This document shows, in pieces, positions 1,274 through 17,610 of a stretch of 17,834 bases of DNA; within the stretch, counting starts at the first letter, position 1, and each line of letters begins with the position of its first letter. The translations under genes and the position numbers were made by a program. The DNA is from Acaryochloris thomasi RCC1774. Its GTDB lineage: Bacteria; Cyanobacteriota; Cyanobacteriia; Thermosynechococcales; Thermosynechococcaceae. Location of the stretch: the NCBI RefSeq assembly GCF_003231495.1, contig NZ_PQWO01000045.1, positions 1-17,834 of the forward strand. Reading direction: 5' to 3'. Under the pieces are notes generated by a model that was not told where the DNA came from, did no database searches, and saw only the letters and a program-made list of their open reading frames with translations.

Positions 1274-1366
1274 TATGACTTCTCCTTCAAGGAATAATTG
1301 CGGTCTGCTCAAGTACTAAAGGGTTTGGGGATCGTACATCCTTACCCTATTCAACGATCAGTATTC

Positions 1367-3106
1367 CTAAACTCTCTGACAGTGCTGGGTGGCAACATGA
1401 TGACCAATCAAATATGCTGTCATCTGTGGACTCACCCTAGGAAGCGGTGCAGCAGAAAGATCGGCGACATAAATGTTCTGACTGCCAATGACTTTACCCG
1501 TATCGTGGGCGGACTCCTCTCCTCGGTTGAGGGCTTTGCCAAATACACAGCCGCCTGACAGGTGCTGCTCGGTGAGCAAATCATTGCGACTATAGTGCTG
1601 AATATAGTCATCCACCTGTAACTTTGAATAGGGCATTCGGGTGAATAGTCGAATCAAGAATTGAAAGAATGGGTGAGGTTTAGCACCTAGTGATTCGACA
1701 AGGGGAATTTGATTGATGAGAGCTGTTCTAGCAATTCGATAGTCTGGATCATCCTGGAGCGGGCTAGCTTGGAAACATCGAAGGATAACCTCATACAGTT
1801 TAGATTTGTCTGATGGAGGATCAGTCTTACCATCAGAGGGTTGATAGAATCCTTCACGAACAATATTGAATTTCACAATGGCTGAAATAAGATTCCACTG
1901 GTGCTGTCCCATCTGAGTCGGATGCCGAAGGGACCACAGAAGATCGTCGAGGCCATTCAATCGGGCAATCAACCATCGACTAACATCCTTAAGCTGTTGA
2001 AAGACCCGTGGGTTGCCGATCATCAGTACCTTGAGCCAGTTCGGCACCCAAAAGGCTAGGAATAGATGAGAAATCAAGTAAATCAGGACATCCAATTGAC
2101 CAGAGAAGAAGTCAAAGTTGCAAACGGTTGGCTCTTCGGCTTCATCTTCCCCGAGGCGAACTTCGGTGGTGGCAAACAGGGAGAGATACTGGTCTTTAAG
2201 ACTGACCTGAAGAGGCTTAGGAAGCAGGTAAATCCCAAAGGGCAGGAGAATATGATCGTTGACATGTTCACCAATTTCAAGATTTTGGAGACGATCTCGA
2301 TGCTCGTAAAGCAATTGGGGGGTCGCTGCTCCAGCACAGAGGAGAAGTTTGGTGTGGTTACCCAATAAGTGGGTTTTAAGGTCTCCTGTTTCTAGGTTCT
2401 CGATGGTAATTGCTGAACAACGTAGGTCTTCATCATCTGCTGCTTCGAGCTGCAGATGAGTCACTTTCCGTTGAGTCACATAGTCCAATCGAGGGTTGTC
2501 AGACCAGTGCAGAAGGGAGATCCCACTATGGGTCCGTTGACCAAATTCATTGAACTGAGTGGGAAAGATGTGGATCTGTTTGTCTTGATCGTCTGGATAG
2601 ACGGGGATATGCCCACTATTATCTTTGTTGATAGTGAATTGCTGGGCTTCTAATTTTGCTTTGACATACTCAGCCGCTGGCGTCAGTGTCCGGTTCGGAT
2701 CTGTCCGTTCGAAGGCTTGTGATAGTTCTGCTTTTCTATCTGTCCAATAATCTGGATCATGCCCAAGATGCTCACTCAGCCACTGGGATGATTCAAAGAT
2801 CATGGTGTAGTTGATGGAGCCACCCCCTCCCATTGTGCAGGCTCGACCGGAAAGGATGGGGGTTCCATCGGGGGTTTGAGCGTTGTGAAGTTTGAAGATA
2901 TTGGCTTCAGAATAGGATTGGGTCCAGTTCCGTTGGTGGGAGATATCACTGGTTTCAAAGAAGTTCTCGCCTTCTTCTATAACCAAAACGTTTCCCTGAG
3001 TTGAACAGGCGAGGTATTGATGCAGAAACGCACAGGCTCCATTGCCAGATCCCACGACAATATAGTCATATTGCTCAGAATTCGGACAGTCGGCTAGCTT
3101 TGGCAT
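1367..3106 (-). CDS. GMC-family (glucose-methanol-choline) FAD-dependent oxidoreductase
   Basis: 579-aa ORF. The N-terminal Rossmann motif is YDYIVVGSGNGACAF followed by VLVIEEG. The GMC signature is GGGGSINYTMIF. C-terminal GMC features are EQHLSGGCVFG and NIYVADLSAAPLPRVSPQMTAYLIG. An atypical hydrophobic stretch (VLIYLISHLFLAFWVPNWLKVLMIG) lies in the middle. The gene is 55-94 nt upstream of the hydrolase on the same strand. Confidence 0.85.
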   Translation of the reverse strand: MPKLADCPNSEQYDYIVVGSGNGACAFLHQYLACSTQGNVLVIEEGENFFETSDISHQRNWTQSYSEANIFKLHNAQTPDGTPILSGRACTMGGGGSINYTMIFESSQWLSEHLGHDPDYWTDRKAELSQAFERTDPNRTLTPAAEYVKAKLEAQQFTINKDNSGHIPVYPDDQDKQIHIFPTQFNEFGQRTHSGISLLHWSDNPRLDYVTQRKVTHLQLEAADDEDLRCSAITIENLETGDLKTHLLGNHTKLLLCAGAATPQLLYEHRDRLQNLEIGEHVNDHILLPFGIYLLPKPLQVSLKDQYLSLFATTEVRLGEDEAEEPTVCNFDFFSGQLDVLIYLISHLFLAFWVPNWLKVLMIGNPRVFQQLKDVSRWLIARLNGLDDLLWSLRHPTQMGQHQWNLISAIVKFNIVREGFYQPSDGKTDPPSDKSKLYEVILRCFQASPLQDDPDYRIARTALINQIPLVESLGAKPHPFFQFLIRLFTRMPYSKLQVDDYIQHYSRNDLLTEQHLSGGCVFGKALNRGEESAHDTGKVIGSQNIYVADLSAAPLPRVSPQMTAYLIGHHVATQHCQRV

Positions 3107-3162
3107 TGCTGCACCCCAATGGCTTGTATACGTTGCGAAATTTGAGCGGGCTTCTCTGGACT

Positions 3163-3351
3163 TTAAATTGTGGTTGAGTCGGCTCCCATAAAGCCAACCT
3201 TGATTCCAGCTCCCTTCAATGTCTCTATCGCTCTGCTATGGATGAAAAGCAATAGCAATAGACCCAGCACAGATAGGAACAAACCCAATATCAATACAAC
3301 GATTCCGACTATCGGAAACTTCAGGGCTTTTCCACGGTAAATGATGGTCAC
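3163..3351 (-). CDS. Small hypothetical membrane protein (62 aa, GTG start)
   Basis: Track ORF with one strong hydrophobic helix (FPIVGIVVLILGLFLSVLGLLLLLFI). Its GTG start overlaps the TGA stop of the upstream small ORF, reading GTGA. It ends 57 nt upstream of the GMC gene on the same strand. Confidence 0.4.
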   Translation of the reverse strand: MTIIYRGKALKFPIVGIVVLILGLFLSVLGLLLLLFIHSRAIETLKGAGIKVGFMGADSTTI

Positions 3352-3515
3352 GATTTAAAAGAGGGCTGCACAGCTATAGATGCCCAGAAGATGGCTTCCC
3401 CCTCTAGGGTGAGCCGAGCAAGATTGGCTGCGATCGCCGCAAGAATCGACCATAGGAGGAGTTTGTGGTACCTAGCAATGTTGCGGAGTTCTGAACGGGT
3501 AAATGTTTTACTCAT
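3348..3515 (-). CDS. Small hypothetical protein (55 aa) below the ORF-track cutoff
   Basis: Hand translation from the minus-strand ATG at 3515..3513 gives MSKTFTRSELRNIARYHKLLLWSILAAIAANLARLTLEGEAIFWASIAVQPSFKS*. It has one hydrophobic segment. The stop TGA (3350..3348) overlaps the GTG start (3351..3349) of the next ORF. No family was recognised. Confidence 0.35.
   Translation of the reverse strand: MSKTFTRSELRNIARYHKLLLWSILAAIAANLARLTLEGEAIFWASIAVQPSFKS
3430..3437. repeat. HIP1 octamer GCGATCGC
   Basis: Exact match, inside the 55-aa small ORF. Confidence 0.95.
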
Positions 3516-3701
3516 CAGCTCGATCCACGATCTGGTTAGTGCGGCACTACTGAGTTATCAACACTATGGTCGTAATTTACGCATGGTCCTAAGATCAAAC
3601 CTTTGCCCACGGGACTGTTAAAAATAGCCCAACCATTTGATACCTAAGGCCTCGCTGGCGTTACGGCTCCTAGCAGGCCTGAAATGCCTGGTGCGATGTA
3701 G

Positions 3702-4021
3702 AAAGCTGAGTGTGAAAGGAGGAATCAACTTCTATTCAATGAGTGGAAAATAGTCTCTGACTCCGGTCACTCTATGCCAAGGCGGGGGTGATACTATTTG
3801 ATATCTCCCAGGCCAATGCGATACAGGGGCATCTCTTTCAAGAGAGGGACAGTGAGAAAGCGATCGCGCTGATGCGGACTGTAGATCAACTCAATCGTCT
3901 ATATGGTCGTAGGGCTGTCTTCTTTGCGAGCGAGGGTTGCACTCAGCAGTGGGCGATGAAGCGGCAGCGGTGTACTCAGGCATATACAACGCGATGGGAT
4001 GAGTTGCCGGTGGTGCGGTGA
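3702..4021 (+). pseudogene. umuC: 3' remnant of umuC (Y-family translesion DNA polymerase V subunit), 5'-truncated and frameshifted
   Basis: The 3788..4021 ORF (ILFDISQANAIQGHLFQERDSEKAIALMRTVDQLNRLYGRRAVFFASEGCTQQWAMKRQRCTQAYTTRWDELPVVR) tracks the E. coli UmuC C-terminus (AGVMLGDF...QLNLFDD...LMTVMDTLN...GRGTLYFAGQGIQQQWQMKR..LSPRYTTR..DLLRV). The same frame extends upstream as LRSLYAKAGV to a TGA at 3758..3760. A second frame gives ...NEWKIVSDSGHS just before that, which implies a frameshift. No palm or finger domains and no umuD are present. Confidence 0.7.
3860..3867. repeat. HIP1 octamer GCGATCGC
   Basis: Exact match, inside the umuC remnant. Confidence 0.95.
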
Positions 4022-4213
4022 TCGACAGTGAATGCTAACTGAAGAAGCATTCGACACACACAGAAATCATCCATTTCTCACTTACTAATCGATGCATAGG
4101 TCAGTGGCAAGCAGAGTTAAATAAACATCAGAAACATTTCATCTTTCCTGAAATACAGGGCGGTACTTTTCTTTGAGTGCTCATGTCATCTCAAGGAATG
4201 TTGACACCTAACA

Positions 4214-4229
4214 TATTGAGTACTCAATA
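4214..4229. promoter_or_regulatory. Perfect 16-bp palindrome TATTGAGTACTCAATA (candidate operator)
   Basis: Exact dyad symmetry read directly from the sequence. It lies in the AT-rich region about 300 nt upstream of the lipoxygenase ATG and is immediately preceded by TTGACA at 4201..4206. No convincing -10 hexamer follows. Confidence 0.3.
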
Positions 4230-4438
4230 CAGAACCACAAAGATTAATTAATATATTCCGTACCATCCATCCATTATCCGTTTTCTAAATAATATACCTA
4301 CGTCATTCAATCAGAATATAAATGCTTTGAAAATTTAAAAATAAGCACTTTGTAAATTCTATTCGCATACATCTATTCCAGAAGTAAATCGTGTTTGGCA
4401 CAAATATTTAAGAGACATAAATTACTCTTTGTTACGGG

Positions 4439-4480
4439 ATTCAGATTTATTCAGATCTTTGCATTTCATCCCAGTATAGT
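4439..4480 (+). promoter_or_regulatory. Candidate lipoxygenase promoter: tandem direct repeat ATTCAGAT-tt-ATTCAGAT plus a TATAGT -10
   Basis: ATTCAGAT occurs exactly at 4439..4446 and 4449..4456, a 10-bp periodicity. TATAGT at 4475..4480 lies 18 nt after the second repeat and 53 nt before the ATG at 4534. Helical-phase direct repeats overlapping the -35 position are the usual layout for OmpR/PhoB-type activator sites. Confidence 0.3.
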
Positions 4481-4533
4481 AGCGGAGATATCTGTAATGC
4501 TCTGCTTGAATTAGTCATATATTTGGAACTGCT

Positions 4534-6519
4534 ATGACAGACTCTAATACTGCTCAAGAAGCTCAGTCTCAGCAATACGAGTATCGGTACGACGCCTTTA
4601 AAAATATTTCACCTAAGTTGATATATCCAATGGCAGTGAAAGTCTTACCTGCTGATCAGTCGTTTACGAAATGGAAGTGGACGAAAAATGTAGTTTCCCT
4701 TGTACTTAGACTAGTTGCAAATCAGGCCATGCAAAATGTATCACTCCGAAAGGGATCGGCCTGCCGCCTGATTACATTTATCCGCTTATACAGAATTTTA
4801 GAAGATCCAAAGAACAGTTCCTATATTGAAAGACTCTTTGATTTCATCATTAGCATTGCCCGAGCGTTGACAAATCGGTTCAAGCGCAGACCTAAATCTC
4901 AAGATATTGAACAAGATGTTAAGCAAAACCAGAAGCCCGATCAGGTGCAAGCCAGGGTTGAGGCAATGGTTGATGATATTCAACAGCAATCTAAAACGAA
5001 GGACCCGGTAAAGCATCTTTCATTTGAGGACTATCGCAATCTATTTCAGATCATCTATTTACCGGATATTAGCAATCATTTTCTTGAGGATCGCTCCTTT
5101 GCAGCTCAACGGGTGGCGGGGGCTAACCCACTGGTCATTATGCAAGTCTCTGAACTCCCTGAGTATTTCAAGGTAACTGAGGAACACTATACAAAGGTGA
5201 TGGGTAAAGATGACTCCCTTCAGGCTGCACTAGACGAGGGGCGGATCTACCTGGCTGACTACAAGATTCTGGACGAAATCGATCCAGGGACTGTTGAGGT
5301 AGGGGTAAACGGTAGCATCAAAGAAACGATTGAGAAATTCGGTTATGCACCTCTAGCTTTGTTTGCGATCGCCTCGGGTGATTGTCCGGGCCGTCTACTG
5401 ACACCGGTTGCGATTCAATGCAGTCAAGACGCTGGCAGTCTCATTTTTACTCCACCCAGTATAGCGGCTGTTGATGAGGAGCGATGGGCTTGGAGAATGG
5501 CAAAGACGGTCGTTCAGGTCGCTGATGGCAATTACCATGAACTAATCTCACACCTAGGACGCACTCATCTGTGGATTGAGCCAATAGCGCTCGGTACCTA
5601 CCGTCGTTTAGCAAAACACAAGTTAGGTAAGCTCCTTCTGCCTCATTTTGAGGGTACTTTCTTCATCAATAATGCTGCTGCAGGTAGCCTGATTGCTAAG
5701 GGTGGTGTTGTGGAAAGTATTTTATCGGGTACGTTGCTATCGTCTGTAACGCTCAGTGTTAAGGCTGCGAAGGGATACCCGTTTGCATTTAATGATTCAA
5801 TGCTTCCCAAAACCTTTGCTGCTCGTGGTGTAGATGATCCACAAAAATTACCGGACTACCCCTATCGTGATGATGCGTTGCTCATTTGGGATGCCATTCA
5901 TAAGTGGGTTAAGTCATACCTTGAGGTCTACTACAGCAGTGATGATGAGGTGCTAAGTGATGCCGTTTTACAGGCGTGGCTAGCAGAACTTGTCGCTGAG
6001 GATGGGGGCCAGATGACAGAGATAGGAGAAGTCATACCAGAGGACAGAAGACCAAAAATCCGAACGTTGGATTATTTGATCGATGCGACAACGCTGATTA
6101 TCTTCACTTGTAGCGTTCAACATGCAGCAGTCAATTTCACCCAAGCATCGTTAATGTCGTTTGCACCCAATATGCCACTGGCAGGATTTAATGCGGCTCC
6201 AACGACTCTTAAAGTCAGTGAAGCAGACTACTTTTCGATGCTGCCATCACTTAGCCTAGCTGAGCAACAAATGAATTTTGGATATACATTAGGATCCGTG
6301 TACTACACTCAAATCGGACAATACAAGGCTAATGAGGTAGAGCTAGAGGAGATGAATCAGCATGATTACTTTGGTGATTCACGAATCTCTCATCACCTAG
6401 AGATTTTTCAGAACAAGTTGAAAGAGATTGAGTTGACCATTCAACAACGGAACGAAACTCGTCCTACTTTTTACGATATTTTGCTGCCGTCAAAAATTCC
6501 GCAATCTACAAATATCTAG
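4534..6519 (+). CDS. Lipoxygenase (non-heme iron, bacterial type; no PLAT domain and no signal peptide)
   Basis: 661-aa ORF with these motifs: FAAQRVAGANPLVI; WAWRMAKTVVQVADGNYHELISHLGRTHLWIEP (His335 at 5536..5538, His340 at 5551..5553); FTCSVQHAAVNFTQ (His530 at 6121..6123, Asn534 at 6133..6135); and a C-terminal IPQSTNI ending in Ile661, the carboxylate ligand. Together these make up the canonical five-ligand lipoxygenase iron site. Confidence 0.93.
   Translation: MTDSNTAQEAQSQQYEYRYDAFKNISPKLIYPMAVKVLPADQSFTKWKWTKNVVSLVLRLVANQAMQNVSLRKGSACRLITFIRLYRILEDPKNSSYIERLFDFIISIARALTNRFKRRPKSQDIEQDVKQNQKPDQVQARVEAMVDDIQQQSKTKDPVKHLSFEDYRNLFQIIYLPDISNHFLEDRSFAAQRVAGANPLVIMQVSELPEYFKVTEEHYTKVMGKDDSLQAALDEGRIYLADYKILDEIDPGTVEVGVNGSIKETIEKFGYAPLALFAIASGDCPGRLLTPVAIQCSQDAGSLIFTPPSIAAVDEERWAWRMAKTVVQVADGNYHELISHLGRTHLWIEPIALGTYRRLAKHKLGKLLLPHFEGTFFINNAAAGSLIAKGGVVESILSGTLLSSVTLSVKAAKGYPFAFNDSMLPKTFAARGVDDPQKLPDYPYRDDALLIWDAIHKWVKSYLEVYYSSDDEVLSDAVLQAWLAELVAEDGGQMTEIGEVIPEDRRPKIRTLDYLIDATTLIIFTCSVQHAAVNFTQASLMSFAPNMPLAGFNAAPTTLKVSEADYFSMLPSLSLAEQQMNFGYTLGSVYYTQIGQYKANEVELEEMNQHDYFGDSRISHHLEIFQNKLKEIELTIQQRNETRPTFYDILLPSKIPQSTNI
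5365..5372. repeat. HIP1 octamer GCGATCGC
   Basis: Exact match, inside the lipoxygenase gene (codons FAIAS). Confidence 0.95.
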
Positions 6520-7198: not shown

Positions 7199-10100
7199 AT
7201 GGATTCTGGCCGTTCCGCTCAGCTTTCTCTGAGGATTCAGTTAAACCATCCCGCTCTGTTGAAGGGGCTGGATGTGTGGCTACAGCTAGGGTTAATCTCA
7301 GATTCACAAGTCCGCAATTTTTGCCTGCAAAACTTGACTTGTGCTCTCTTAACAACCTCACTGAGCAAGGAGACGACCATTGCGCATCAGGTTGGACAGT
7401 TGGAGGCTCCGATTCCCCCATCTAGCGATTCACCGAGGGTACCGGCTCCTCAGATATCTTCCCCTCCCCAACAGCAAGGAACAGATTGGCTGACACACAT
7501 TCTACAGTCCCTGATGGCAGAGCTAAGTGTTTTATGGCTGTTGCTGTTGGGCGTTTTTATGGTGGTGGTGTCCTCTGGGGTGTTAGCTGCGACCCAATGG
7601 CGCTATCTAGTACCCGCAGGTCAGTATGGTTTGCTGCTGGCTTATACCCTGGTTTTCGCTGCCGTGGCCTATGGGCTAGAGCGTCGTCCTCAGCTACAGC
7701 TCACAGCTCGAATGCTGCAAGTGACGACACTGCTGCTCATCCCGGTTAATTTTTGGATGATGGATCAGCTCAACCTGTTCAGAAGTGGTGGGGGTTGGTT
7801 GGTGGCAGCACTCTCAGCCCTGACCCTAACCGGAATTCTCGGGGTGCTACTGCGCTTGAGTCGAGGGTCTCTCTCCACCTCATTAATCCGGATTACCACC
7901 GTCAATATTGTCGGGTTGAGCTGGTTGCACTGGGGATGGGAACAACCAGGTTGGCCCTGGTTTGCGACCTATGGGGGTATGCTAGCGACCTGCATAGCAC
8001 TTACCTATGAAGACAATATTCAGGAACAGGGAGGCGCTGTCGCTTCGGAAGAGGCCGAGGACTCATTACCTTCGCTCTTGGGATGGATGCAGCCAAGCCG
8101 GATTGCTGTGATAGGTGGACTACTGCTGCTCTTGTTCCGAGCTATTGTGGTGGCCCAGATCCCGATATCAAAGATGGGATTGGCAATTGCGCTGGGCGGC
8201 TGGTTATTGTGCTGGTTAAGCCGCCGCTCTCTTCAGCCTTGGTTTTGGTTAGGGGTGGGACTGCTGATCATGGGTCGCTGGGCAGCACTGGCAATTCCAG
8301 GACAGGCATTGGCCATTAGTGTCTTAGCTCTATGGATCTTTGGGGAACGCCTGAGGCGTCGGTCAAAGGTTTTAGATCTAGTCTGTCTCTTTTTCATTGG
8401 TCTTCAAACGTGTTGGCCTCTAACTCATCTCGTGTCGGCAGGGCTGCGGCAGCAGGTGGTATCCACAGCGATTGAATGGGCACCCACCGAGGTGGGAATG
8501 CCAATGGCTCTCTGGGGAGTTGGGTTATTCCCATACTGTCTGTTGACTCTTTGGCTGGGGTCAAAACTACGGCAGCGGTCATCGGGTCAATTGACTGAGA
8601 CAGCAGAAGGCTTGGCCTTAGGAATGGGATTGATTTTGACGATCATCAGCTTCTTAAATCCCTTGACGCGATCGCTCAACCTGATTTTGTCTGCCCTCAC
8701 GCTCAGTTGGGTTGTTTGCCGACGACCTCAGGCGCGATCATTCCTGCTCTATTTGACCCAATTCGCAGGTCTCTCGGCTATCTTCGCAAACATTGACTTC
8801 GGTTTTCCTCGCCTTAGTCTGGCAGTTTGGGCCAGCATTTGTCTTGGAGCCATGATGGCAGAGTGGGTCGTTAGCGGTTGGGTCAGAGCATCAAGGTGGC
8901 AGGAAAGTGCTTGGAATCTAGGTCTCGGGTTAGCTGCGGTCAGCTATGTTCTCTGGAGTAGCGAGAATATGATTTGGCGGGTGTCATGGCTGATGACGCC
9001 CGTGATGCTGACTCTTTTAGGAACTCGGTCTGGCTTTCAAAGACCAAAACTAGCGGCTGGCCTAGGCATGGCCACGCTGGTGGTTGCTCAACCCCTCACC
9101 TTTGCTTGGACCACACCGCGTCTGTTGGGGTTGGCGGGCAGCACAGTACTTACGTTTTTCAATACTCGGACGCTAAAGCATCCATTGGCAGGTGGGTTGA
9201 CCATTGGCTTTGGCCTCAGCTTTGTCTACGCAGCTCTCTGGGAACTCCGCCAAGGGCAGATCTCTTTGGGATTATTCTCAAACTGGGTAGCCGCGACGGC
9301 TCTGTTGCTGTGGCTCTTACATGGCGAACTGCAGCGGCGCGGGTTGGGACGCTGGTACATCAAAGCCCTGAGTCGATGGGCCTGGGGTCTCAATACGCTC
9401 AATCTGTTGGGAATGAACCTCTGCTTGGGCTTGCTCTACAGCGGCTGGGATACGCTGGGCCCTAGCCCTCAATATCTCATCGGAGCAACGGGGCTAGCGA
9501 CGCTTGCCATCAGCTATCACAGTTGGCAAAATCCTTCTGAGAGCAGTCGGTTTCAGGTTGCTGTGAGCCTAGAGGTCTTGATGGCCAGTTTGCTTCTTCT
9601 GCGAAATGCTTCAATCATAGAATTAGCGATTGCTAACTTAGCTCTTGGCATCCTGAGTCTGGGCATTGGGAAGCTATGGAGGCGGCAGAACGACAGACCA
9701 TACTGGGCCAGTGAAAAACTCATTCCTCTCCTCTACGGCAGTTTAGGATGGGTCTTTGGCCACAGCAGCTTTTCCGCCACTACCGGAATCTATACCCTGA
9801 TCTTCAGCCTGATCGCTATTGGCGTCAGCCGACGGCAGGTCAGTTTCAAGGGCATGTCCTATCTGGCGATCGCCGGTCTGAGCTGGGGCGCCTATGAGCT
9901 CTTGATCTATCAACTGCTGCAGGCCATTGGCGGGCGGGTGGCCGATGGCTGGCTGATGTTTGCAGTCTTGGGCACGGTGATTGCCTACAGTGAATACGTC
10001 TTGGCCCCCTGGCTAGCACGCTATGTGAAGCTCTCGGTTAAGGAATTACAGATTATCGCGCATCTTCACTGGACCGCGGCCAGTGGGTTGGCTTTCTTAG

Positions 10101-11008
10101 CGTTGGTTGCCGAATTGAGTACTGGTGGGGAGCCGCTATGGATTGGGGTGACCAGTGGCTTAGCCTGCTATGCCTTTATCCAGGGACGCAGGCGCGAGGG
10201 CTGGATCTATGCAGGCATCCTAGAGACAATTGCAGCCCTCGGCTATGGGCTGTATCTTACGGTTCCCATGCCGTTCTTGCAGCACTGGGGAGCAGCAATT
10301 GCCTGCCTCTTAGCGGCTGGCGTTTATCGATTGCCCTGGTCTACATGGGGCTGGCCTAGAAGACCGTGGAGACAGACGGCCTTCGCTCTGCCTCTAGTAG
10401 CGACTTTAACAACTGCTAACGCTATCCTTATTCCCACCCTCCTGATTGCGGGGGCTTTCTATGCCTGGTTAGCAATGCAGGAACGTCGTCCTCAATTGAG
10501 CTATCTCAGCATATTCTTCGCGGACTGGGCCATCTGGCGGTTGCTTGATATCTACCAACTCCAGGGACAGTTTGCAATCGCCTGTCTTGTGGGAGGCTCC
10601 CTTCTGTATATCGCTCAGATTGATCCTGTCTTTAAAACTGACACAACCCGCAACCAGCGCCATCTGCTAAGGACGATGGCCACGAGCTTGATGTGTTTGA
10701 GTGCGCTGGCTGAATCTGATGCTCAGCTACTATGGGGATTTGCCGCTGCTGGCTGTTTTCTGTTGTTGGTTCTATCAGGTCTAATCCTGCGGGTACGAGC
10801 CTTTGCCTATGTGGGCAGCCTATTTTTCGTCCTCAAGGTGGGGCGTCAGCTCTGGCTATTCGTTGCCGATCAGTCGTTTTTGCTCTGGGCCATAGGGATT
10901 GTTGTGGGGCTGCTGTTCATATGGGTGGCAGCTACCTTTGAGGCCCGGCGATCTCAAATGACGGCACTCCTAAATTATTGGGTTGATGAACTGAGAACGT
11001 GGGCATAG
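7199..11008 (+). CDS. Very large polytopic integral membrane protein (1269 aa), function unknown
   Basis: A single uninterrupted ORF. The soluble N-terminus is about 95 aa (LLKGLDVWLQLGLISDSQV, reminiscent of DUF2157-type N-termini) and ends in a Pro/Ser-rich linker (PIPPSSDSPRVPAPQISSPPQQQ). After that come dozens of hydrophobic helices rich in L, W, G and A, separated by short Arg-rich loops. It is visibly more GC-rich than the neighbouring lipoxygenase gene. No catalytic motif was recognised. Confidence 0.8.
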   Translation: MDSGRSAQLSLRIQLNHPALLKGLDVWLQLGLISDSQVRNFCLQNLTCALLTTSLSKETTIAHQVGQLEAPIPPSSDSPRVPAPQISSPPQQQGTDWLTHILQSLMAELSVLWLLLLGVFMVVVSSGVLAATQWRYLVPAGQYGLLLAYTLVFAAVAYGLERRPQLQLTARMLQVTTLLLIPVNFWMMDQLNLFRSGGGWLVAALSALTLTGILGVLLRLSRGSLSTSLIRITTVNIVGLSWLHWGWEQPGWPWFATYGGMLATCIALTYEDNIQEQGGAVASEEAEDSLPSLLGWMQPSRIAVIGGLLLLLFRAIVVAQIPISKMGLAIALGGWLLCWLSRRSLQPWFWLGVGLLIMGRWAALAIPGQALAISVLALWIFGERLRRRSKVLDLVCLFFIGLQTCWPLTHLVSAGLRQQVVSTAIEWAPTEVGMPMALWGVGLFPYCLLTLWLGSKLRQRSSGQLTETAEGLALGMGLILTIISFLNPLTRSLNLILSALTLSWVVCRRPQARSFLLYLTQFAGLSAIFANIDFGFPRLSLAVWASICLGAMMAEWVVSGWVRASRWQESAWNLGLGLAAVSYVLWSSENMIWRVSWLMTPVMLTLLGTRSGFQRPKLAAGLGMATLVVAQPLTFAWTTPRLLGLAGSTVLTFFNTRTLKHPLAGGLTIGFGLSFVYAALWELRQGQISLGLFSNWVAATALLLWLLHGELQRRGLGRWYIKALSRWAWGLNTLNLLGMNLCLGLLYSGWDTLGPSPQYLIGATGLATLAISYHSWQNPSESSRFQVAVSLEVLMASLLLLRNASIIELAIANLALGILSLGIGKLWRRQNDRPYWASEKLIPLLYGSLGWVFGHSSFSATTGIYTLIFSLIAIGVSRRQVSFKGMSYLAIAGLSWGAYELLIYQLLQAIGGRVADGWLMFAVLGTVIAYSEYVLAPWLARYVKLSVKELQIIAHLHWTAASGLAFLALVAELSTGGEPLWIGVTSGLACYAFIQGRRREGWIYAGILETIAALGYGLYLTVPMPFLQHWGAAIACLLAAGVYRLPWSTWGWPRRPWRQTAFALPLVATLTTANAILIPTLLIAGAFYAWLAMQERRPQLSYLSIFFADWAIWRLLDIYQLQGQFAIACLVGGSLLYIAQIDPVFKTDTTRNQRHLLRTMATSLMCLSALAESDAQLLWGFAAAGCFLLLVLSGLILRVRAFAYVGSLFFVLKVGRQLWLFVADQSFLLWAIGIVVGLLFIWVAATFEARRSQMTALLNYWVDELRTWA
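8668..8675. repeat. HIP1 octamer GCGATCGC
   Basis: Exact match, inside the large membrane protein gene. Confidence 0.95.
9866..9873. repeat. HIP1 octamer GCGATCGC
   Basis: Exact match, inside the large membrane protein gene. Confidence 0.95.
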
Positions 11009-11087: not shown

Positions 11088-12080
11088 GTGGCAAAGCGAA
11101 AAAACGATATCGAGACAGTCCTCTCACAACTAGACCAATTGGCTGATGCTCCCCCTGATGATGAGACATGGTTTGGGTTGCGTCGGGGACTATTGAGCAA
11201 GCATGGTGTTGTTATAGGCAAAGCGGCGAAGATTGCGGCCCAATTGGAATGGAAAGATGGCATTCCTGACATGCTCAAAGCTTACGAACGGCTGAGCAAC
11301 AATGGAGCGAATGTTGATCCGGGCTGTATAGGAAAGGCGAATATCATTAAGGCTTTGCGACGTTTGAAAGCCTATGAACCAACCACTTACATACGGGGCA
11401 TCAGGTACAAACAGTTTGAGGCAGTCTGGGGTGGCAAAGAAGACCGGGCCGCTCAACTCAGAGCTGAATGCGCGTTGGCACTGGCTGAAACTGGATATTC
11501 TGATGCCCTACTCTACATTGCCGACCTATTGGCGGACCCAGAGACCGAAGCTAGAGCAGGGGCGGCGCAAGCGCTAAGCTGCTTTTCAGGAACAACGCCC
11601 ATTGCTTTGCTTCGATTGAGAGCACTCAGTGGCGAACAGAATGTCAGGGTTCTAGAAGAAATTTTCTCGGTCTTATTTGCCCTTTCTGGTCCCACTACTA
11701 ATCCTGAGGAGAAAGACGAAACGGTACGGTTCGTGGCTCAGTTTCTAGAGTCTTCTGATGTTGATGTAGTATCTGTTGCAGCGATTACCTTGGGATCTTC
11801 ACGGCGACTGTCAGCTTTCAATGCACTGCGAGAATTCGCAGAGAACATTCTCGACGAAGAACGACTGAGGATTTCGTTCGAGGCCATCGCCATTCTGCGG
11901 TTGCCAGAAGCATTTGACTATGTTGTGGATACTATTTCCCGTGGCAGTGAGTTAGAGGCGCGTCTTGCCGAACAAGCCATGTCGATCTACCGCGATGATG
12001 AACGGCTCTGGGAACGCGTAGAAACAGCCCGTGCAGACAGAAAAGGAGAAGATGGTTTGAGCTTTTTGTTTGATGATTAG
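11088..12080 (+). CDS. HEAT/ARM-like helical repeat protein, function unknown
   Basis: 330-aa ORF with a GTG start; there is no in-frame ATG until about codon 62. HEAT_PBS-like units are present (LLADPETEARAGAAQALS, ESSDVDVVSVAAITLGSS, plus regularly spaced amphipathic helices). It starts 79 nt after the membrane protein gene. Confidence 0.65.
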   Translation: MAKRKNDIETVLSQLDQLADAPPDDETWFGLRRGLLSKHGVVIGKAAKIAAQLEWKDGIPDMLKAYERLSNNGANVDPGCIGKANIIKALRRLKAYEPTTYIRGIRYKQFEAVWGGKEDRAAQLRAECALALAETGYSDALLYIADLLADPETEARAGAAQALSCFSGTTPIALLRLRALSGEQNVRVLEEIFSVLFALSGPTTNPEEKDETVRFVAQFLESSDVDVVSVAAITLGSSRRLSAFNALREFAENILDEERLRISFEAIAILRLPEAFDYVVDTISRGSELEARLAEQAMSIYRDDERLWERVETARADRKGEDGLSFLFDD

Positions 12081-12087: not shown

Positions 12088-12136
12088 TCACATCTGCCCC
12101 AGTTAATTGTAGAAGCAATACTTTTTGAGATTCAGT

Positions 12137-12499
12137 ATGTCCAATCGTTCTCCGTTTGTTGATCAAGTGGTTGCCCATCTCAATCGGGTTACGCCTGTGA
12201 CGGCCCGGTTCATGTTTGGCGGCTATGGCCTCTTTGTAGAAAGTGTGATGATCGCCTTGATTGCGGATGATGTTCTCTATTTCAAGGTCGATGACCAGAA
12301 CCGAGAGGACTACATTGCAGCAGGCTCGGAACCTTTCACCTACCACGGCAAAGGTAAACCCATCCAAATGTCCTACTATCGGCTTCCGGGTGAGGTCTTT
12401 GATAATCTAGAACAGCTCGTGCAGTGGGTAGAGGCGGCCCAGGCTGCTGCTGCCCGGTCAAAGTCCAAGTCTAAAAGCAAGCGGAAAAAATCGTCGTAG
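12137..12499 (+). CDS. TfoX N-terminal domain protein (Sxy/TfoX_N-only family)
   Basis: The track ORF starts at a TTG at 12125; I prefer the ATG at 12137 (MSNRS...). The TfoX_N pattern is present: ARFMFGGYGLFVESVMIALIADDVLYFKVDD...PFTY...GKPIQMSYYRLPGEVFDNLEQLVQWVEAA. The protein has a C-terminal KSKSKSKRKKSS tail and lacks the TfoX C-terminal HhH domain. Confidence 0.8.
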   Translation: MSNRSPFVDQVVAHLNRVTPVTARFMFGGYGLFVESVMIALIADDVLYFKVDDQNREDYIAAGSEPFTYHGKGKPIQMSYYRLPGEVFDNLEQLVQWVEAAQAAAARSKSKSKSKRKKSS

Positions 12500-12905
12500 A
12501 GGAAAGGTTGATAAAGGCTCTTCAGCAATAGCAACAGCCATACAGGTCGGCTAGGCTTGCTAATTTGTGTCCAATCCCTTTCGGTAATGGTTACCTTTTC
12601 GAGAGCCACGCTGGGCTAATGCGGGGGGTACGACAGCCCAATTGCTGCCATCCTAGCCTCGATATTTTGAGTGGCAAGTACAGCTCTAGAGATTTACTAA
12701 ACCACCAATAAGCGCTGGAGTTACAGGAGAATTGCAGTTGCGGCCACAGGTTTGCGGCAGGCTTAGATGATGCGTTCGTAGATGCGATGGTCTCTCACCA
12801 GGCCCCGGCGGTATCCTTGTCAAAATTGTAAGGGTGAATTGACCACACCTGGCTGCCAGAAGATACATATGAAGATTTATTGAACCCTTGAGAAACAGGG
12901 CGTTA

Positions 12906-12921
12906 GCTACTGATAAGTAGC
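12906..12921. promoter_or_regulatory. Short dyad GCTACT-gata-AGTAGC upstream of the S8 peptidase gene
   Basis: Two exact 6-bp inverted arms with a 4-nt spacer, about 60 nt upstream of the ATG at 12980, where the DNA becomes AT-rich. It could be an operator or a small RNA hairpin. There is no further support. Confidence 0.2.
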
Positions 12922-12979
12922 AGTATCCATATACACTTCAATCAAAAAAACCTCAATATACGGATCTGTAGGTATTTCT

Positions 12980-14779
12980 ATGCCGAACATGAAAGCTACC
13001 ATAGCTCAGCAGTGCGCTCCAGTCTTTGAAGGGTTTGCTATCGAGACTAGTACGTCAAGCAAGCCGCAAGATGTGCAGCAGTTGATTTACAAACATTTCA
13101 AAATAGAATTTACAGTCCAGGCTTACGGTCATCAGTCAACAAACTTTGATCTGATTGCTGAAGAATTTAACCCAACCGTTCGAGAAGCTTGGGAAATGGC
13201 ATACGACATGGACGAACTCTCAGAAATTGCGTGTGTGGAACCGCTCTTTGCCGCTGTGGTTGAAGGGCGACCTGATTGGATTGAAGATATTGAACTACCC
13301 AACGAGGAAGACAGCGAGGATTTTACCCGAGAATATCGCTCTGTTCTCGGAACCGGATCAGATGAACATTTACCTGAAAGCCAAGATCTGGAGTGGGCAT
13401 TGAAGGAAATGAGAGTATTCCAAGCCTGGGAACGCTTTTTCCCAGGCCACATTCAGAAGCCACCAGGTCAAAAAATTATCATTGGACACCCAGATACAGG
13501 ATATAGACAACACCCTGAAATTAAAGACAACTTACTAATCGAGCAGGGATACGACTTCATTGATGGAGAAACTCACTCAGACCCCCTAGATGAATTAGAA
13601 GAACCTTTTGGGGTCATCATCCCAAACCCTGGGCATGGTACTTCCGCAGCCAGCGTCATTGTCAGTCCCAGAGGCGGTGCAGATTGTCTCTTCGTGACGG
13701 GAGTTGCCCCAGGTGCAGCGCTGATTCCTTACCGCACTACCTATTCGGTCGTCCTCTGGCCCCAAAGCGTACTCAACCTCGCACGATCCATTGAACGCGC
13801 TGTAAAAGATCAGGCAGATGTTATTTCAGTCAGCATGGGAGCAGTACAGTCATCTGGACGGTTAAGACAGGCCGTTCGTGAAGCACAATCTCAAGGCGTA
13901 ATTGTGCTCGGAGCCGCAGGTAATTACATCCCGTGGGTTGCCCCTCCAGCATCGATTGATGAGGTCATCTCGGTTGCGGCTAGCAATGCCAAACAGGAAA
14001 TCTGGCAAGGCTCTATCAGCAGGATTGGCGAGGTAGATGTTTCGGCACCCGGAGAATCTGTTTGGAGAGCACGGGCGATCAAAAACGATCAGGGCCAAGT
14101 GAAGTTCCCTGTTGAGCGAGGAAGCGGGACAACGTTCTCTGTGGCTCTAACGGCAGGTGTGGCAGCTTTGTGGTTGGACTACCACGGCGGTAGGCAAGCG
14201 TTAGCTCAAAGACTAGGTGGGAGTGATAATCTTGCGAAGATCCCAACACTCTTCAAGAAAATCTTAAAAGCTAACTGTAGGAAAATTGACAATTGGGATA
14301 CTCGTCGAGGCGGAGTGGGTATCGTCAACGCTGAGGATACTCTCTCCGCAAGGCTTGAAGAGTATATCGATGATGTTGCTATGCCCGATACCTCAATGCA
14401 AGAAGTTGGATTCAGAAACAGTGAAGCTTTACGAGAATTACGGGAGCTATTTGGACAAAGCCCGTCATTTACCGATGAATCCAAACCGAAAACATTGTCA
14501 GACACGTTAGATTCACAGCTATCGGAGCTTCTCAACGTCTCTCCGGAAGAACTACCGAATACTTTATCCAAGTTCGGGCAGGAGCTAGCGTTCCGTTTTT
14601 CTACAAACCCAGATTCCTATAAAGCATTCGCTAAAACCCTCACAAGCAATGGTGAAGTTATACTCAATAGTGAGACATCTATGACTAATTTGGATGGTAT
14701 CAAAGAGTGTCGTAGCTCACTCTTATCTAAAGACATGTCAAGGCAGCTAACGAAACAGATGTCTAAACAAGTATTTTAG
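12980..14779 (+). CDS. Subtilisin-like (MEROPS S8) peptidase homologue, leaderless, with long N- and C-terminal extensions and a non-canonical Ser motif
   Basis: 599-aa ORF. The Asp motif is IIIGHPDTGY (Asp172 at 13493..13495). The His motif is NPGHGTSAAS (His219 at 13634..13636). The oxyanion Asn is in LGAAGNY (Asn315 at 13922..13924). The Ser-motif region is GSGTTFSVALTAGVAAL, with Thr385 (ACG, 14132..14134) at the position aligned to the subtilisin GTS serine and Ser387 (14138..14140) two residues later. There is no N-terminal signal peptide. About 165 aa precede the catalytic domain and about 170 aa of polar, low-complexity sequence follow it. Confidence 0.88.
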   Translation: MPNMKATIAQQCAPVFEGFAIETSTSSKPQDVQQLIYKHFKIEFTVQAYGHQSTNFDLIAEEFNPTVREAWEMAYDMDELSEIACVEPLFAAVVEGRPDWIEDIELPNEEDSEDFTREYRSVLGTGSDEHLPESQDLEWALKEMRVFQAWERFFPGHIQKPPGQKIIIGHPDTGYRQHPEIKDNLLIEQGYDFIDGETHSDPLDELEEPFGVIIPNPGHGTSAASVIVSPRGGADCLFVTGVAPGAALIPYRTTYSVVLWPQSVLNLARSIERAVKDQADVISVSMGAVQSSGRLRQAVREAQSQGVIVLGAAGNYIPWVAPPASIDEVISVAASNAKQEIWQGSISRIGEVDVSAPGESVWRARAIKNDQGQVKFPVERGSGTTFSVALTAGVAALWLDYHGGRQALAQRLGGSDNLAKIPTLFKKILKANCRKIDNWDTRRGGVGIVNAEDTLSARLEEYIDDVAMPDTSMQEVGFRNSEALRELRELFGQSPSFTDESKPKTLSDTLDSQLSELLNVSPEELPNTLSKFGQELAFRFSTNPDSYKAFAKTLTSNGEVILNSETSMTNLDGIKECRSSLLSKDMSRQLTKQMSKQVF

Positions 14780-14814: not shown

Positions 14815-15222
14815 TTAACCCTCACACCCAACTCCATCCCTATTGCCGTCAAACCGATGTGGGTCAGCACCCACTACCCGGAACCGGCGATGACTGATAT
14901 CCCCACAGTCGAGGTCTGGTGGAGCCGATGGAATGCACACATCAGGATAGGAGCGATCGCATCCAGCTCGAGAAGGACCAGATGCTTCGGGAATAGCCAC
15001 AGTGGGCTGCTGAACGACGGAGCGTTTTCGTCGACGGTAATCCCACGGCATGATCGGATCAGTCTGCGACCAAAAGGCCAACCGACGTTGACGAGCGCTC
15101 TGCTCTGCTGCTGCGTATTTGCATAGCTTCGGCATCAGTTGCGTGTACTTCGGCACCCCCTTCTCAGAGTGTTCATCAGTGCCATGAAAACAGGCAATGT
15201 GGGTATGTTGGCATGTCAGTCC
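14815..15222 (-). pseudogene. 5'-truncated thermonuclease (SNase)-family remnant with a C-terminal Excalibur-type Ca-binding domain
   Basis: The track ORF 14815..15156 begins at a GTG, and the frame stays open upstream to a stop at 15223..15225. AAAEQSARQRRLAFWSQTDPIMPWDYRR matches the last helix and C-terminus of SNase homologues (AE..AR..R.GLW...P..PW.YR). CDRSYPDVCIPSAPPDLDCGDISHRRFRVVGADPHRFDGNRDGVGCE matches the Excalibur DxDxDGxxCE domain. The catalytic OB-fold core of about 100 aa is missing, and the break lies at the IS21 edge. Confidence 0.65.
14953..14960. repeat. HIP1 octamer GCGATCGC
   Basis: Exact match, inside the nuclease remnant. Confidence 0.95.
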
Positions 15223-15268: not shown

Positions 15269-16039
15269 TCAAGTCGTCTTCTCCGCTGGACTATCCTCCT
15301 GCTTTTCATTGATCATTGAACTGGTGAGTTTCCGCATCGACTCACCTTTGAGCATCACTCGAACCGAATCATGGACAATGCGGTCGAGGATGGCATCAGC
15401 GAGGGTGGGTTCTTCAATCTTTTGATGCCACTGCTTGATGGGCAATTGGGTGGCAAACAAACACGACGCCCGTCGATAGCGTTCATCAAGGAAGTCAAGT
15501 ATTTCCCTTGCATCATGGTCACTAAGCGGATCTCTGAGCCATTCATCGAGAACAATCAAATTAAAAGCTGCCAGTTGCTTTCTGAATTTCGGGAACGACC
15601 CATCGACCTTAGCCATTTTGAGCTGGCAGATTAAATCTGCTGTTTTGAAATAGCGCACTGTCATCCCCTGCTTACAGAGATGCTCAGCTAAAACACAACT
15701 GAGAAAGGTTTTGCCCACCCCTGTCGGTCCAATGAGCATCAAGTTGAGATGTTTGCTAAGCCATTGCCCCTGCGTCCACTGTAGGAAGTGAGCCTTATTC
15801 AACCCTCGCTTGACCTGGAAATCAACATCATCGAGGGCCGCATTAGTGAACAATCGAGCTTGTTTGAGCCGCCGATGCATCCGCTGGTTTTGGCGTCTGA
15901 GATATTCGCTTTCGACCAGCAGGGCCAAGCGTTCATCAAAGGAGAGATCTTGATAGGTCGGCTGTGCCTGTTGTTGTTGCCATGCCTCTAGCAATCCGTT
16001 GAGTCTGAGATATTGGAGTTGTTCTATGGTTTGTTGCAT
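15269..16039 (-). CDS. istB: IS21-family helper ATPase IstB
   Basis: 256 aa. Walker A is LIGPTGVGKTFL and Walker B is LIVLDEW. The IstB-type N-terminus is LRLNGLLEAWQQQ...LSFDERLALLVESE. The gene starts 26 nt after the istA stop. Confidence 0.92.
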   Translation of the reverse strand: MQQTIEQLQYLRLNGLLEAWQQQQAQPTYQDLSFDERLALLVESEYLRRQNQRMHRRLKQARLFTNAALDDVDFQVKRGLNKAHFLQWTQGQWLSKHLNLMLIGPTGVGKTFLSCVLAEHLCKQGMTVRYFKTADLICQLKMAKVDGSFPKFRKQLAAFNLIVLDEWLRDPLSDHDAREILDFLDERYRRASCLFATQLPIKQWHQKIEEPTLADAILDRIVHDSVRVMLKGESMRKLTSSMINEKQEDSPAEKTT

Positions 16040-16065
16040 CGTTACTAAAAGGAGGAAAGGGACGC

Positions 16066-17610
16066 TTAGCTGTAGTAGTCTTGACCGCGCAAATTGTCAT
16101 GTTGAATCGGTGGCACTGAAGACTCTGGTGGTGCTTGGGGAAGCTGGTCATAATTAGATTTAAGAATCGACTTGAGCCGTTGATAACCGACGAGATTGAA
16201 GAGATTAGCCCGTTGTGCAGCCTGCTCTAATCGCTGGGGGCCATAGCGTGTGGCTAAATGCTGAACCCCTGAAATTGAGCGAAATGCCTGTTCTTCATAG
16301 GTCTTGCGCTTGAAGATGGCTTCCACCTGTTGGAGGGTCTGTGGCCCAATGCGATGTGCCCATGCTAAGAATCGCTCTTTCGACTGTTGTTTATAGGCCC
16401 AATGCTCAGGGGGCATATGCTCAGGTAAGGTGGTGTGCCGATACGGGACCGATGAGCGCGGATGGGCAGCAATCCGCTGATTTTCAAACAACACTTCAAT
16501 GAGTTTCTCGGTGATCTTGACGCTGACCTTGCGTCTGACAAACCAATAAGGGACCGAGTAGTAGTGGTGCTCCACTTCTATGTGATAGTCCAGGTTGACG
16601 GTCGCTTGTTTCCATTGCGCCAGGACAAACGAGTAAGTCGGTAAGGGCTTGAGGACCGATTTCTCTATCTGCTCAAAGCGTTGCCGACGTGACATGCCAT
16701 ACCCTTGCATCGTCCGCTCGTTAAGCTGGCACAGCTTGAGAGTAATGGCCTCATTGAGAGCGCTAAAGCTCGTGAATTGCTCATGGCGTAGTGGGGCAAT
16801 AATTTGCCGTTCTACTTCCTGGACCGCTTTTTCAACCTTGGCTTTATCGCGGGGTCGCCTGACACGTGTGGGAATGACCGCAACACCATAGTGCTCTGCA
16901 AATTCCTGGTAGCTGCGATTGAGTTCTGGCTCATATCGACAAGCAGAGTTGATACCGGATTTCAGATTATCGGGAACGATACAGTGGGGCACACCCCCAA
17001 AGAAGGCCAAAGCTCGTTGGTGAGAACCCAGCCAGTGAGGAATCGCTTGAGTGGGAGTTGCTTCGGCAAAGGTATAGTTGCTGGCACCTAAACACGCGAC
17101 AAAAATTTGAGCCTCATGCTCTTCTTCTGTGAACGGATCTCGGACCCTCATGGTCAACCCACAATAATCGACGAATAATTTTTCACCGGCTTTGTGGACC
17201 TGACGCATCGATAGATTATGATGCCCTTTCCACTGGTTGTAACGACGGCAAAATTGACCATAGCTCAGGTTCCATTCTTGGCGATCTAGGCCCTCTTGCC
17301 AGAGCAAAGCGAGGGTGATCCCTTTTGATTGCAATTCGGTATGAACCGCCTCAAAGTCAATCGCGTCCCGTTGCAAAGGCTTCGATTGATGCTTGCCCAG
17401 TAAGGCTTGAGCCTCCTTATCATTGAGACTTTGAAGTTGCTCGTAGCTGAGGCATTTAGCGGCAGCGCGACGGATATAGTCTTGAACCGTAGAGCGGGCT
17501 ACGACGCAACTGGTCGCGATCTGGGTTTGGTTATAGCCGAGTTCATAGAGGCGGATGATTTCTCGAAATTTGACCATCGATAGTAATTTCCCTTGGTGAT
17601 GATGCTTCAT
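16066..17610 (-). CDS. istA: IS21-family transposase IstA (HTH plus DDE/rve domain)
   Basis: 514 aa. The N-terminal HTH is IIRLYELGYNQTQIATSCVVARSTVQDYIRRA. Integrase-core-like motifs are LFVDYCG...IFVACLGASNYTFAEA...CIVPDNLKSG. The length and the pairing with IstB are typical of the family. The start could also be the internal MVKFREI. Confidence 0.92.
   Translation of the reverse strand: MKHHHQGKLLSMVKFREIIRLYELGYNQTQIATSCVVARSTVQDYIRRAAAKCLSYEQLQSLNDKEAQALLGKHQSKPLQRDAIDFEAVHTELQSKGITLALLWQEGLDRQEWNLSYGQFCRRYNQWKGHHNLSMRQVHKAGEKLFVDYCGLTMRVRDPFTEEEHEAQIFVACLGASNYTFAEATPTQAIPHWLGSHQRALAFFGGVPHCIVPDNLKSGINSACRYEPELNRSYQEFAEHYGVAVIPTRVRRPRDKAKVEKAVQEVERQIIAPLRHEQFTSFSALNEAITLKLCQLNERTMQGYGMSRRQRFEQIEKSVLKPLPTYSFVLAQWKQATVNLDYHIEVEHHYYSVPYWFVRRKVSVKITEKLIEVLFENQRIAAHPRSSVPYRHTTLPEHMPPEHWAYKQQSKERFLAWAHRIGPQTLQQVEAIFKRKTYEEQAFRSISGVQHLATRYGPQRLEQAAQRANLFNLVGYQRLKSILKSNYDQLPQAPPESSVPPIQHDNLRGQDYYS

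Follow-up and report, generated by a model that had tools for sequence, protein, structure and literature searches.

Why proteases with a classical catalytic triad use serine and never threonine as the nucleophile is a long-standing question in enzymology. It is raised in a natural setting by a subtilase-like gene of the cyanobacterium Acaryochloris thomasi RCC1774, in which the catalytic Ser of the S8 family appears as Thr: has this protein remained a protease with a different nucleophile, or has it become something else? The gene (positions 12980..14779, plus strand) lies on contig NZ_PQWO01000045.1 of assembly GCF_003231495.1, the whole of the stretch analysed, 17,834 nt, being referred to here as the window. 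Sequence comparison shows a natural Ser-to-Thr replacement of the nucleophile in an S8 homologue, in which Thr385 may have taken over the catalytic role. In the literature searched, which did not cover MEROPS, we found no description of a natural Thr-for-Ser subtilase or of an ‘Asp-His-Thr’ triad.

Recurrence and conservation of threonine at the nucleophile position

The open reading frame (ORF), which starts at the first ATG to follow a stop codon and is closed by the next one, encodes a product of 599 amino acids (aa; 100% match to family member P0001), with no in-frame upstream extension possible; the NCBI ‘S8 family peptidase’ of A. thomasi is identical to this product from the second Met onward. 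Residues 163-401 match PF00082 of Pfam at E = 2.2e-23, the score of 83.4 bits lying well above the threshold of 21.8. Neither a signal peptide nor a transmembrane segment was found in the protein, the highest Kyte-Doolittle values being 0.90 (15-residue mean, first 50 aa) and 1.26 (19-residue mean, whole protein). Together, the Pfam match and the hydropathy scan bear out the leaderless S8 homologue proposed in the first-pass annotation, which a model had made from the letters of the window.

The Asp-His order and the oxyanion-hole Asn of the S8 family are kept on invariant or near-invariant columns. Catalytic Asp172 in HPDTGY (GAT, 13493..13495, plus strand, as are all codons given here) falls on a column that is Asp in 264/264 aligned family members, and catalytic His219 in the GHGT of GHGTSAA (CAT, 13634..13636) on one that is His in 264/265. 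The column of Asn315, the oxyanion-hole residue in the AAGN of AAGNY (AAT, 13922..13924), is Asn in 198/265 members; in this alignment every Thr-bearing sequence has all three residues intact. The G-T-S-x-[AS] motif, by contrast, has lost its Ser nucleophile to Thr385 (ACG, 14132..14134; motif GTTFS), where the family norm is Ser encoded by TCN. The window protein is thus a homologue by descent and not a canonical serine peptidase, because its nucleophile column holds Thr385. All of these residue positions agree with those first reported. The absence of Pro after the Ser motif, remarked on in the same annotation, is also true, but it is common across the family and not peculiar to the Thr forms.

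The register of the motif, for which the first-pass annotation had looked to a profile alignment, places Thr385 rather than Ser387 on the nucleophile column. Both MAFFT and hmmalign alignments of 266-321 homologues agree on this, the family motif reading G-T-S-[FLY]-[SA] in ungapped surroundings. When a profile of 119 full-length homologues was compared with PDB, the column aligned without gaps to the Ser of GTSMA in the intracellular subtilisin 7y6m (E = 6e-29) and likewise in thermitase (1thm). A pairwise alignment of the query fragment to PCSK9 sets T385 opposite the Ser of SGTSQAAAHVAG.

Among 5.8 billion proteins searched, 624 relatives reached E <= 1e-5, and the best-scoring 120 of these are nearly all full-length (about 550-610 aa). 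HMMER, run exhaustively against 1.84 billion cluster representatives, gave 749 clusters (50% identity) at E <= 1e-30, and among the best 150 of these are four further Thr forms, P0208, P0232, P0234 and P0249. With the Thr forms as seed, a profile search brought in P0307 and P0314, which both carry Thr and are 55% identical to P0232. Members with a recognisable motif have Ser (307/316) or Thr (9/316) in the nucleophile column and no other residue, which answers the early question of whether GTTFS or GTSFS is the norm. The closest relatives of the window protein, P0002 (57% identity, GTTFS) and P0003 (56% identity, GTTFA, found on 12 contigs of several samples), have ACC and ACG, respectively, as their Thr codons, and in the nearest Ser-type relatives the Ser codon is TCA or TCT. 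Since Ser is encoded by TCN at this position in all 80 genomic family loci, Thr (ACN) is only one of about six single-step replacements, yet it is the sole one seen; TCN is just as close to Pro, Ala, Phe/Leu, Tyr and Cys/Trp, none of which occupies the column in any of the 316 members.

When the nucleophile column is masked and the S8 core is used to build a neighbour-joining tree, the Thr forms fall into four separate lineages, each nested among Ser sequences. Lineage 1 comprises the window protein, P0002 and P0003 and is sister to the Ser-type P0004; lineage 2 comprises P0232 and P0249; lineage 3 is P0208 alone; and lineage 4 is P0234, with P0244 as sister. P0307 and P0314, which were not placed on the tree, probably belong with lineage 2. 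Members of lineage 1 are 56-62% identical and have kept the Thr with synonymous codons (ACG, ACG and ACC), as have P0232 and P0249 in lineage 2 (58% identical; ACC vs ACG), for which the ratio of non-synonymous to synonymous substitution rates (dN/dS) is about 0.3 overall. The NG86 dN/dS of the lineage 1 S8 core is 0.08-0.09 with the synonymous rate (dS) saturated, indicative of purifying selection, and the Ser-type sister P0004 has a branch at least as long as those of this lineage. Two metagenome scans for further lineage 1 members returned only P0003 again, and no compensating substitution near the active site was found to co-vary with Thr in three or more lineages. From these sequence comparisons we conclude that the Ser-to-Thr swap is real, is under selection and has arisen at least four times in the family. 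The anomaly first noticed at Thr385 has in this way become stronger, Thr being conserved, recurrent and the exclusive replacement, and an S8 family with at least four natural Ser-to-Thr events would provide a direct test system for the Ser-versus-Thr question.

Predicted architecture and possible roles of Thr385

An AlphaFold2 model built with the family alignment (mean predicted local distance difference test score (pLDDT) 88, predicted template modelling score 0.92) predicts that the window protein has the subtilisin alpha/beta fold. The predicted core matches mature subtilisins with target-normalised TM-scores (template modelling scores) of 0.80-0.86 and Foldseek E-values of 1e-15 to 1e-17, at an identity to solved subtilases of only about 20-24% in the Foldseek alignments. 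The N-terminal region of about 165 aa that had been noted from the sequence is present and is resolved by the model into two parts. The first is a beta-alpha-beta-beta-alpha-beta domain (aa 15-92, 13022..13255, plus strand; pLDDT 92-97) that starts with the family motif FEGF, and the second is a linker (aa 93-135, 13256..13384, plus strand; pLDDT 64-79) that varies in length and sequence across the family alignment and connects this domain to the catalytic domain. We describe the N-terminal domain as propeptide (I9)-like by predicted fold because the longest Foldseek alignments of the model are with unprocessed pro-subtilisin E (3whi), pro-Tk-subtilisin (2z2z) and fervidolysin (1r6v). The S8 catalytic domain (aa 136-455, 13385..14344, plus strand) encloses the Pfam match and is also supported by Foldseek and by comparison of the profile with PDB (E down to 6e-29). 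What had been described as a polar C-terminal tail is instead a helical domain (aa 474-595, 14399..14764, plus strand; pLDDT up to 94 in the full-length model), conserved in the family and containing the motif GQELAF at aa 533-538. Modelled alone, this domain has a pLDDT of 69 and no fold match in PDB (best E = 1.6), and Pfam searches with separate N- and C-terminal fragments of 19 members gave no match.

The protein resembles subtilisin and thermitase (S8A) in catalytic-domain homology, predicted fold, DTG/HGT order, oxyanion Asn, the G-T-x at a helix N-terminus and the propeptide-like N-domain. It differs from them in having Thr for Ser, no signal peptide, a long linker after the propeptide-like domain and an additional conserved helical C-terminal domain of about 125 aa. 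The intracellular subtilisin proteases (ISPs) of the Bacillus type (7y6m, 7xr8) are likewise leaderless cytoplasmic S8 proteins and include the best profile-to-PDB match mentioned above. ISPs have a short N-terminal inhibitory extension, a Ser nucleophile, no folded propeptide-like domain and no C-terminal helical domain, whereas the N-terminus of the window protein is modelled as a folded propeptide-like domain of about 80 aa followed by a linker, and a C-terminal domain is present.

We put at about even the chance that the window protein is a slow Thr-nucleophile subtilase for limited proteolysis. It would be a cytoplasmic, zymogen-like subtilase composed of a propeptide-like domain, an S8 core and a helical C-terminal domain, in which a single TCN-to-ACN change has converted the catalytic Ser into Thr in this protein and its closest relatives, with Asp172, His219, the oxyanion Asn315 and the substrate-binding strand retained. 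His219 and Asp172 would activate the O-gamma-1 of Thr385 as the acylating nucleophile, and Asn315 would stabilise the oxyanion. Such an enzyme would be expected to be much slower than its Ser counterpart, a rate that would suit limited or single-turnover proteolysis better than bulk degradation; autoprocessing to release its propeptide and the cutting of a single, specific target are examples. A low-turnover role fits because the family appears to tolerate a weakened oxyanion hole: the oxyanion Asn column is Thr in 64/265 members (mostly Nostocales; for example P0037, L009:10001-11749, with the motif AASGT) and Gln in 3/265, all of which keep the Ser nucleophile. The family therefore seems able to bear weakened catalytic machinery.

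Somewhat short of even is the prospect that the Thr forms are catalytically competent Asp-His-Thr endopeptidases, in which case they would be the first natural classical-triad proteases with an internal Thr nucleophile. The secondary alcohol may then have been selected for a slow or long-lived acyl-enzyme that serves single-turnover, switch-like or transfer chemistry in the cell. The threonine peptidases of MEROPS class T, such as the proteasome, are N-terminal nucleophile (Ntn) hydrolases with an alpha-beta-beta-alpha fold, in which an N-terminal Thr is exposed by autoprocessing. Thr385, in contrast, occupies an internal position, where a helix of the predicted subtilisin fold begins, and any chemistry would proceed via the His base and not via a free alpha-amine. 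Membership of the Ntn threonine peptidases was accordingly rejected, the fold and the chemistry being unrelated.

The first-pass annotation had proposed a Thr nucleophile and a pseudoprotease side by side, and both still stand, with the evolutionary pattern favouring a need for a hydroxyl at position 385. As a pseudoprotease, or a strong hypomorph, the protein would have lost catalysis and been kept for binding a partner or substrate, or for regulating another protease as CspC and CspA regulate CspB. We regard this main rival as rather unlikely; the hydroxyl would in that case still be needed for binding or structure. Several considerations speak for such a loss and weigh against a working Thr nucleophile. 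Engineered Ser-to-Thr trypsin and thrombin have residual but greatly reduced activity (PMC8695361, citing Pelc 2015 and Baird 2006); the Ser195Thr enzymes are impaired because the Thr methyl group clashes with the substrate, and Thr is undocumented at the nucleophile of any natural trypsin-fold protease (PMC8695361). Given how deleterious the swap is in that fold, it could leave a subtilase with virtually no activity. Asp and His belong to the structural motifs DTG and HGT and were perhaps kept for folding alone, an intact triad is no guarantee of subtilase activity (PMC7200643), and no conserved neighbour among the 80 loci points to a substrate or role. Subtilase pseudoproteases that retain a prodomain are moreover known regulators, namely CspC and CspA of Clostridioides difficile (PMC7200643), and strong purifying selection is equally expected of a functional pseudoenzyme.

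The genes next to the lineage 2 proteins are also compatible with a regulatory protease-like subunit. P0249 and P0232 are encoded in a conserved operon of overlapping genes (L091:5131-12305 and L093:2-7249), in which a C14 caspase (a separate gene or fused) comes first, followed by S8(Thr), by a second C14 caspase of 382-390 aa and by a HEAT-repeat protein of 800-817 aa, so that the Thr subtilase stands between two caspase-like genes; in L091, a Tricorn_N/PD40 protein follows. The caspase-S8(Thr)-caspase-HEAT order would fit a protease cascade or a regulatory subunit alike. None of the proteins of this operon is similar to the neighbours of the gene in the window.

Against a loss of catalysis stands the replacement itself, which in four independent events from TCN codons is always Thr and never Ala, Gly, Cys or Pro. 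The Thr clade shows no acceleration of evolution, and all aligned Thr-bearing sequences have Asp, His and Asn intact, whereas the Csp pseudoproteases have lost both His and Ser to non-nucleophilic residues (His to Thr and Ser to Gly in CspC, His to Gln and Ser to Ala in CspA; PMC7200643). By analogy, the Csp proteins are the closest conceptual precedent, as S8 homologues with altered triads that keep the prodomain, are conserved under selection and serve as regulators within the cell or spore. They lack both base and nucleophile, whereas the window protein keeps His219 and has exchanged only Ser, for a residue that again carries a hydroxyl. Apart from their common S8 membership, no specific relationship in sequence links the two, and a sleC/cspBA context is absent. 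Csp-type pseudoproteases are marked by the replacement of both His and Ser and by a lack of autoprocessing, and on its residues the window protein does not belong to them. The Ser195Thr forms of trypsin and thrombin, as Asp-His-Ser triads with Ser changed to Thr, are the only experimental model of such a site, and in them the O-gamma of Thr195 is still able to reach a covalent inhibitor (PMC8695361). These are laboratory mutants of the chymotrypsin fold, while the swap described here is natural, recurrent and conserved. Were Thr385 to prove active, a steric problem would have been solved within the subtilisin fold, yielding a new catalytic type of use in engineering proteases and in designing ligases or acyl-transfer enzymes; were it inactive, the family would offer a cleanly defined route from a protease to a regulated pseudoenzyme that still needs a hydroxyl.

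Family distribution, gene neighbourhoods and defence assignments

The finding also flags what is, judging from its sequences, a large and uncharacterised family of stand-alone, leaderless pro-subtilases, its 749 clusters occurring in multicellular cyanobacteria and in other phyla. The family is found mainly in the Nostocales (filamentous cyanobacteria), often with more than one copy per genome, and also in the Acidobacteriota, Gemmatimonadota and Actinomycetota (Pyrinomonadaceae, Gemmatimonadaceae, Kribbella and Pseudonocardiaceae). When ORFs within 8 kb on either side of the gene were clustered for the 80 genomic loci, no neighbour family was present in more than 15 of them. Contexts inspected individually are mutually unrelated, the neighbours of P0002 and P0003 being unrelated to those in the window, and many family loci lie in ordinary chromosomal neighbourhoods. 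The gene therefore behaves as a stand-alone unit. Some members are fused to other domains, namely Trypsin_2 with Endonuclease_1, M4 thermolysin, DUF3616, a second classical S8 domain, and Peptidase_C14 with DUF4384 (fusion-bearing members P0267/P0270, P0125, P0132/P0133, P0203/P0207/P0256 and P0249), and these sequence-level associations hint at roles beside degradative effectors.

It is improbable that the protein is an anti-phage or conflict component, whether an IetS-like leaderless S8 protease or the effector or activator protease of an NTPase system whose partner has been lost or separated. The idea of an IetS-like defence protein had been floated at first pass, together with the observation that a partner ATPase is absent. 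It draws on a generic ‘subtilase’ match in PADLOC (E = 2.6e-10), on the family fusions to caspase, trypsin plus endonuclease, thermolysin and a second S8 domain, and on the variable or mobile settings of some loci (IS21 in the window, ALP_N and FtsK/SpoIIIE near P0003, Tae4 and giant proteins near P0004). The IetS model of PADLOC, however, does not match the window protein, and both the rarity of shared neighbours over the 80 loci and the many ordinary chromosomal settings speak against a defence module. The sole nearby ATPase is the IstB of an IS21 element (6e-60 to IstB_IS21), whose match to IetA is weak (6.7e-4) and covers 32 residues only. Assignment to IetS/ietAS was thus rejected, the protein sharing with IetS the S8 domain and the lack of a leader but having no IetS match and no IetA partner, and the neighbouring ‘IetA/DrmD’ matches being the IS21 IstB; the absence of a partner ATPase held good.

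The best NCBIfam model for the protein, mycosin (TIGR03921, E = 2.6e-29), was likewise rejected at 102.5 bits against a cut-off of 278.75. The mycosins of the type VII secretion system (T7SS) are also S8 proteins, but the window protein is without signal peptide or membrane anchor, no hydrophobic N- or C-terminal segment being present, and the window contains no T7SS/ESX genes.

Ser387, sequence integrity and surroundings of the gene

A register-shifted active site, in which Ser387 (TCT, 14138..14140), two residues downstream of Thr385, would be the true nucleophile, had been put forward as a further option and is very improbable. Ser is present at this position in the window protein and in P0002, but the column is not conserved (Ala 180, Ser 79, Cys 3, Gly 3), and Ala occupies it in P0003 as well as throughout the other Thr lineages. 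We reject Ser387 as an alternative nucleophile because the column is Ala in 180/265 family members and in 7/10 Thr-bearing sequences, and the ungapped motif alignment with solved subtilases speaks against it as well. The residue two after Ser221 on the helix of the subtilisin fold points away from His, which also counts against Ser387. That the Thr is a sequencing or assembly error (ACG misread for TCG), or belongs to a gene decaying beside an insertion sequence, has a negligible chance of being right: the draft contig that carries the gene is indeed short and has an IS21 copy at its end, but the ORF is intact across 599 aa with full-length homology, Thr recurs in independent sequences of other samples (P0003 on 12 contigs, P0249 on 4, P0208 on 2) and is kept at 56-62% identity with ACG/ACC variation, as in P0003 and P0002, and a dN/dS of about 0.09-0.15 speaks against a decaying pseudogene.

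The intergenic region upstream of the gene (480 bp, 12500..12979) contains no significant ORF and presumably holds the gene's own promoter. Its description as AT-rich holds only slightly for the region as a whole (GC 0.467 vs 0.489 for the window) and better for the last 180 bp (0.41). A scan for sigma-70-like promoters gave no plus-strand match in 12500..12979, terminator-like matches are present, and no Rfam family was found in the window. The mobile elements reported alongside the gene correspond to an IS21-type istB (15269-16039) and istA (16066-17610), which lie downstream of and outside the protease gene on the minus strand (15269..17610; Pfam IstB_IS21 6e-60, rve and Mu-transpos_C_2). 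Clear terminal inverted repeats of IS21 were not found, the only candidate being one weak 16-nt pair (15129-15144 / 17504-17519, 81% complementary). The istA start lies 224 nt from the contig end, and the contig is probably broken within a repeated insertion sequence.

Further upstream on the plus strand is an ORF of 1269 aa (7199-11008) with no sequence match in Pfam, NCBIfam, PADLOC or PDB; it is followed by genes for a 330-aa HEAT-repeat protein (11088-12080) and a TfoX_N protein (12125-12499). A bacterial lipoxygenase is encoded at 4534-6519 (PF00305, E = 7e-66), near a GMC oxidoreductase (1367-3106, minus strand) and an ORF at 95-1312 (minus strand) with a below-cut-off match to Hydrolase_4 of the alpha/beta-hydrolase family, suggesting that 95-6519 may be an oxylipin-related cluster.

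Among the relatives, the P0003 gene is the last of a block (L002:1-11794, with the same layout in L001, L003 and L004) that encodes an ALP_N actin-like protein, a 386-aa FtsK/SpoIIIE ATPase and several proteins without Pfam match, one of which, a 582-aa Asn/Ser-rich protein, ends 6 nt upstream of the P0003 gene. Ordinary chromosomal genes come after this block, which may be an integrated mobile element. P0004, the nearest Ser-type relative, is encoded (L008:1-11824) downstream of two giant ORFs (>3186 and 2235 aa) and of genes for an SH3_3 protein and a Tae4-family amidase, a neighbourhood that is, by its predicted products, toxin-like.

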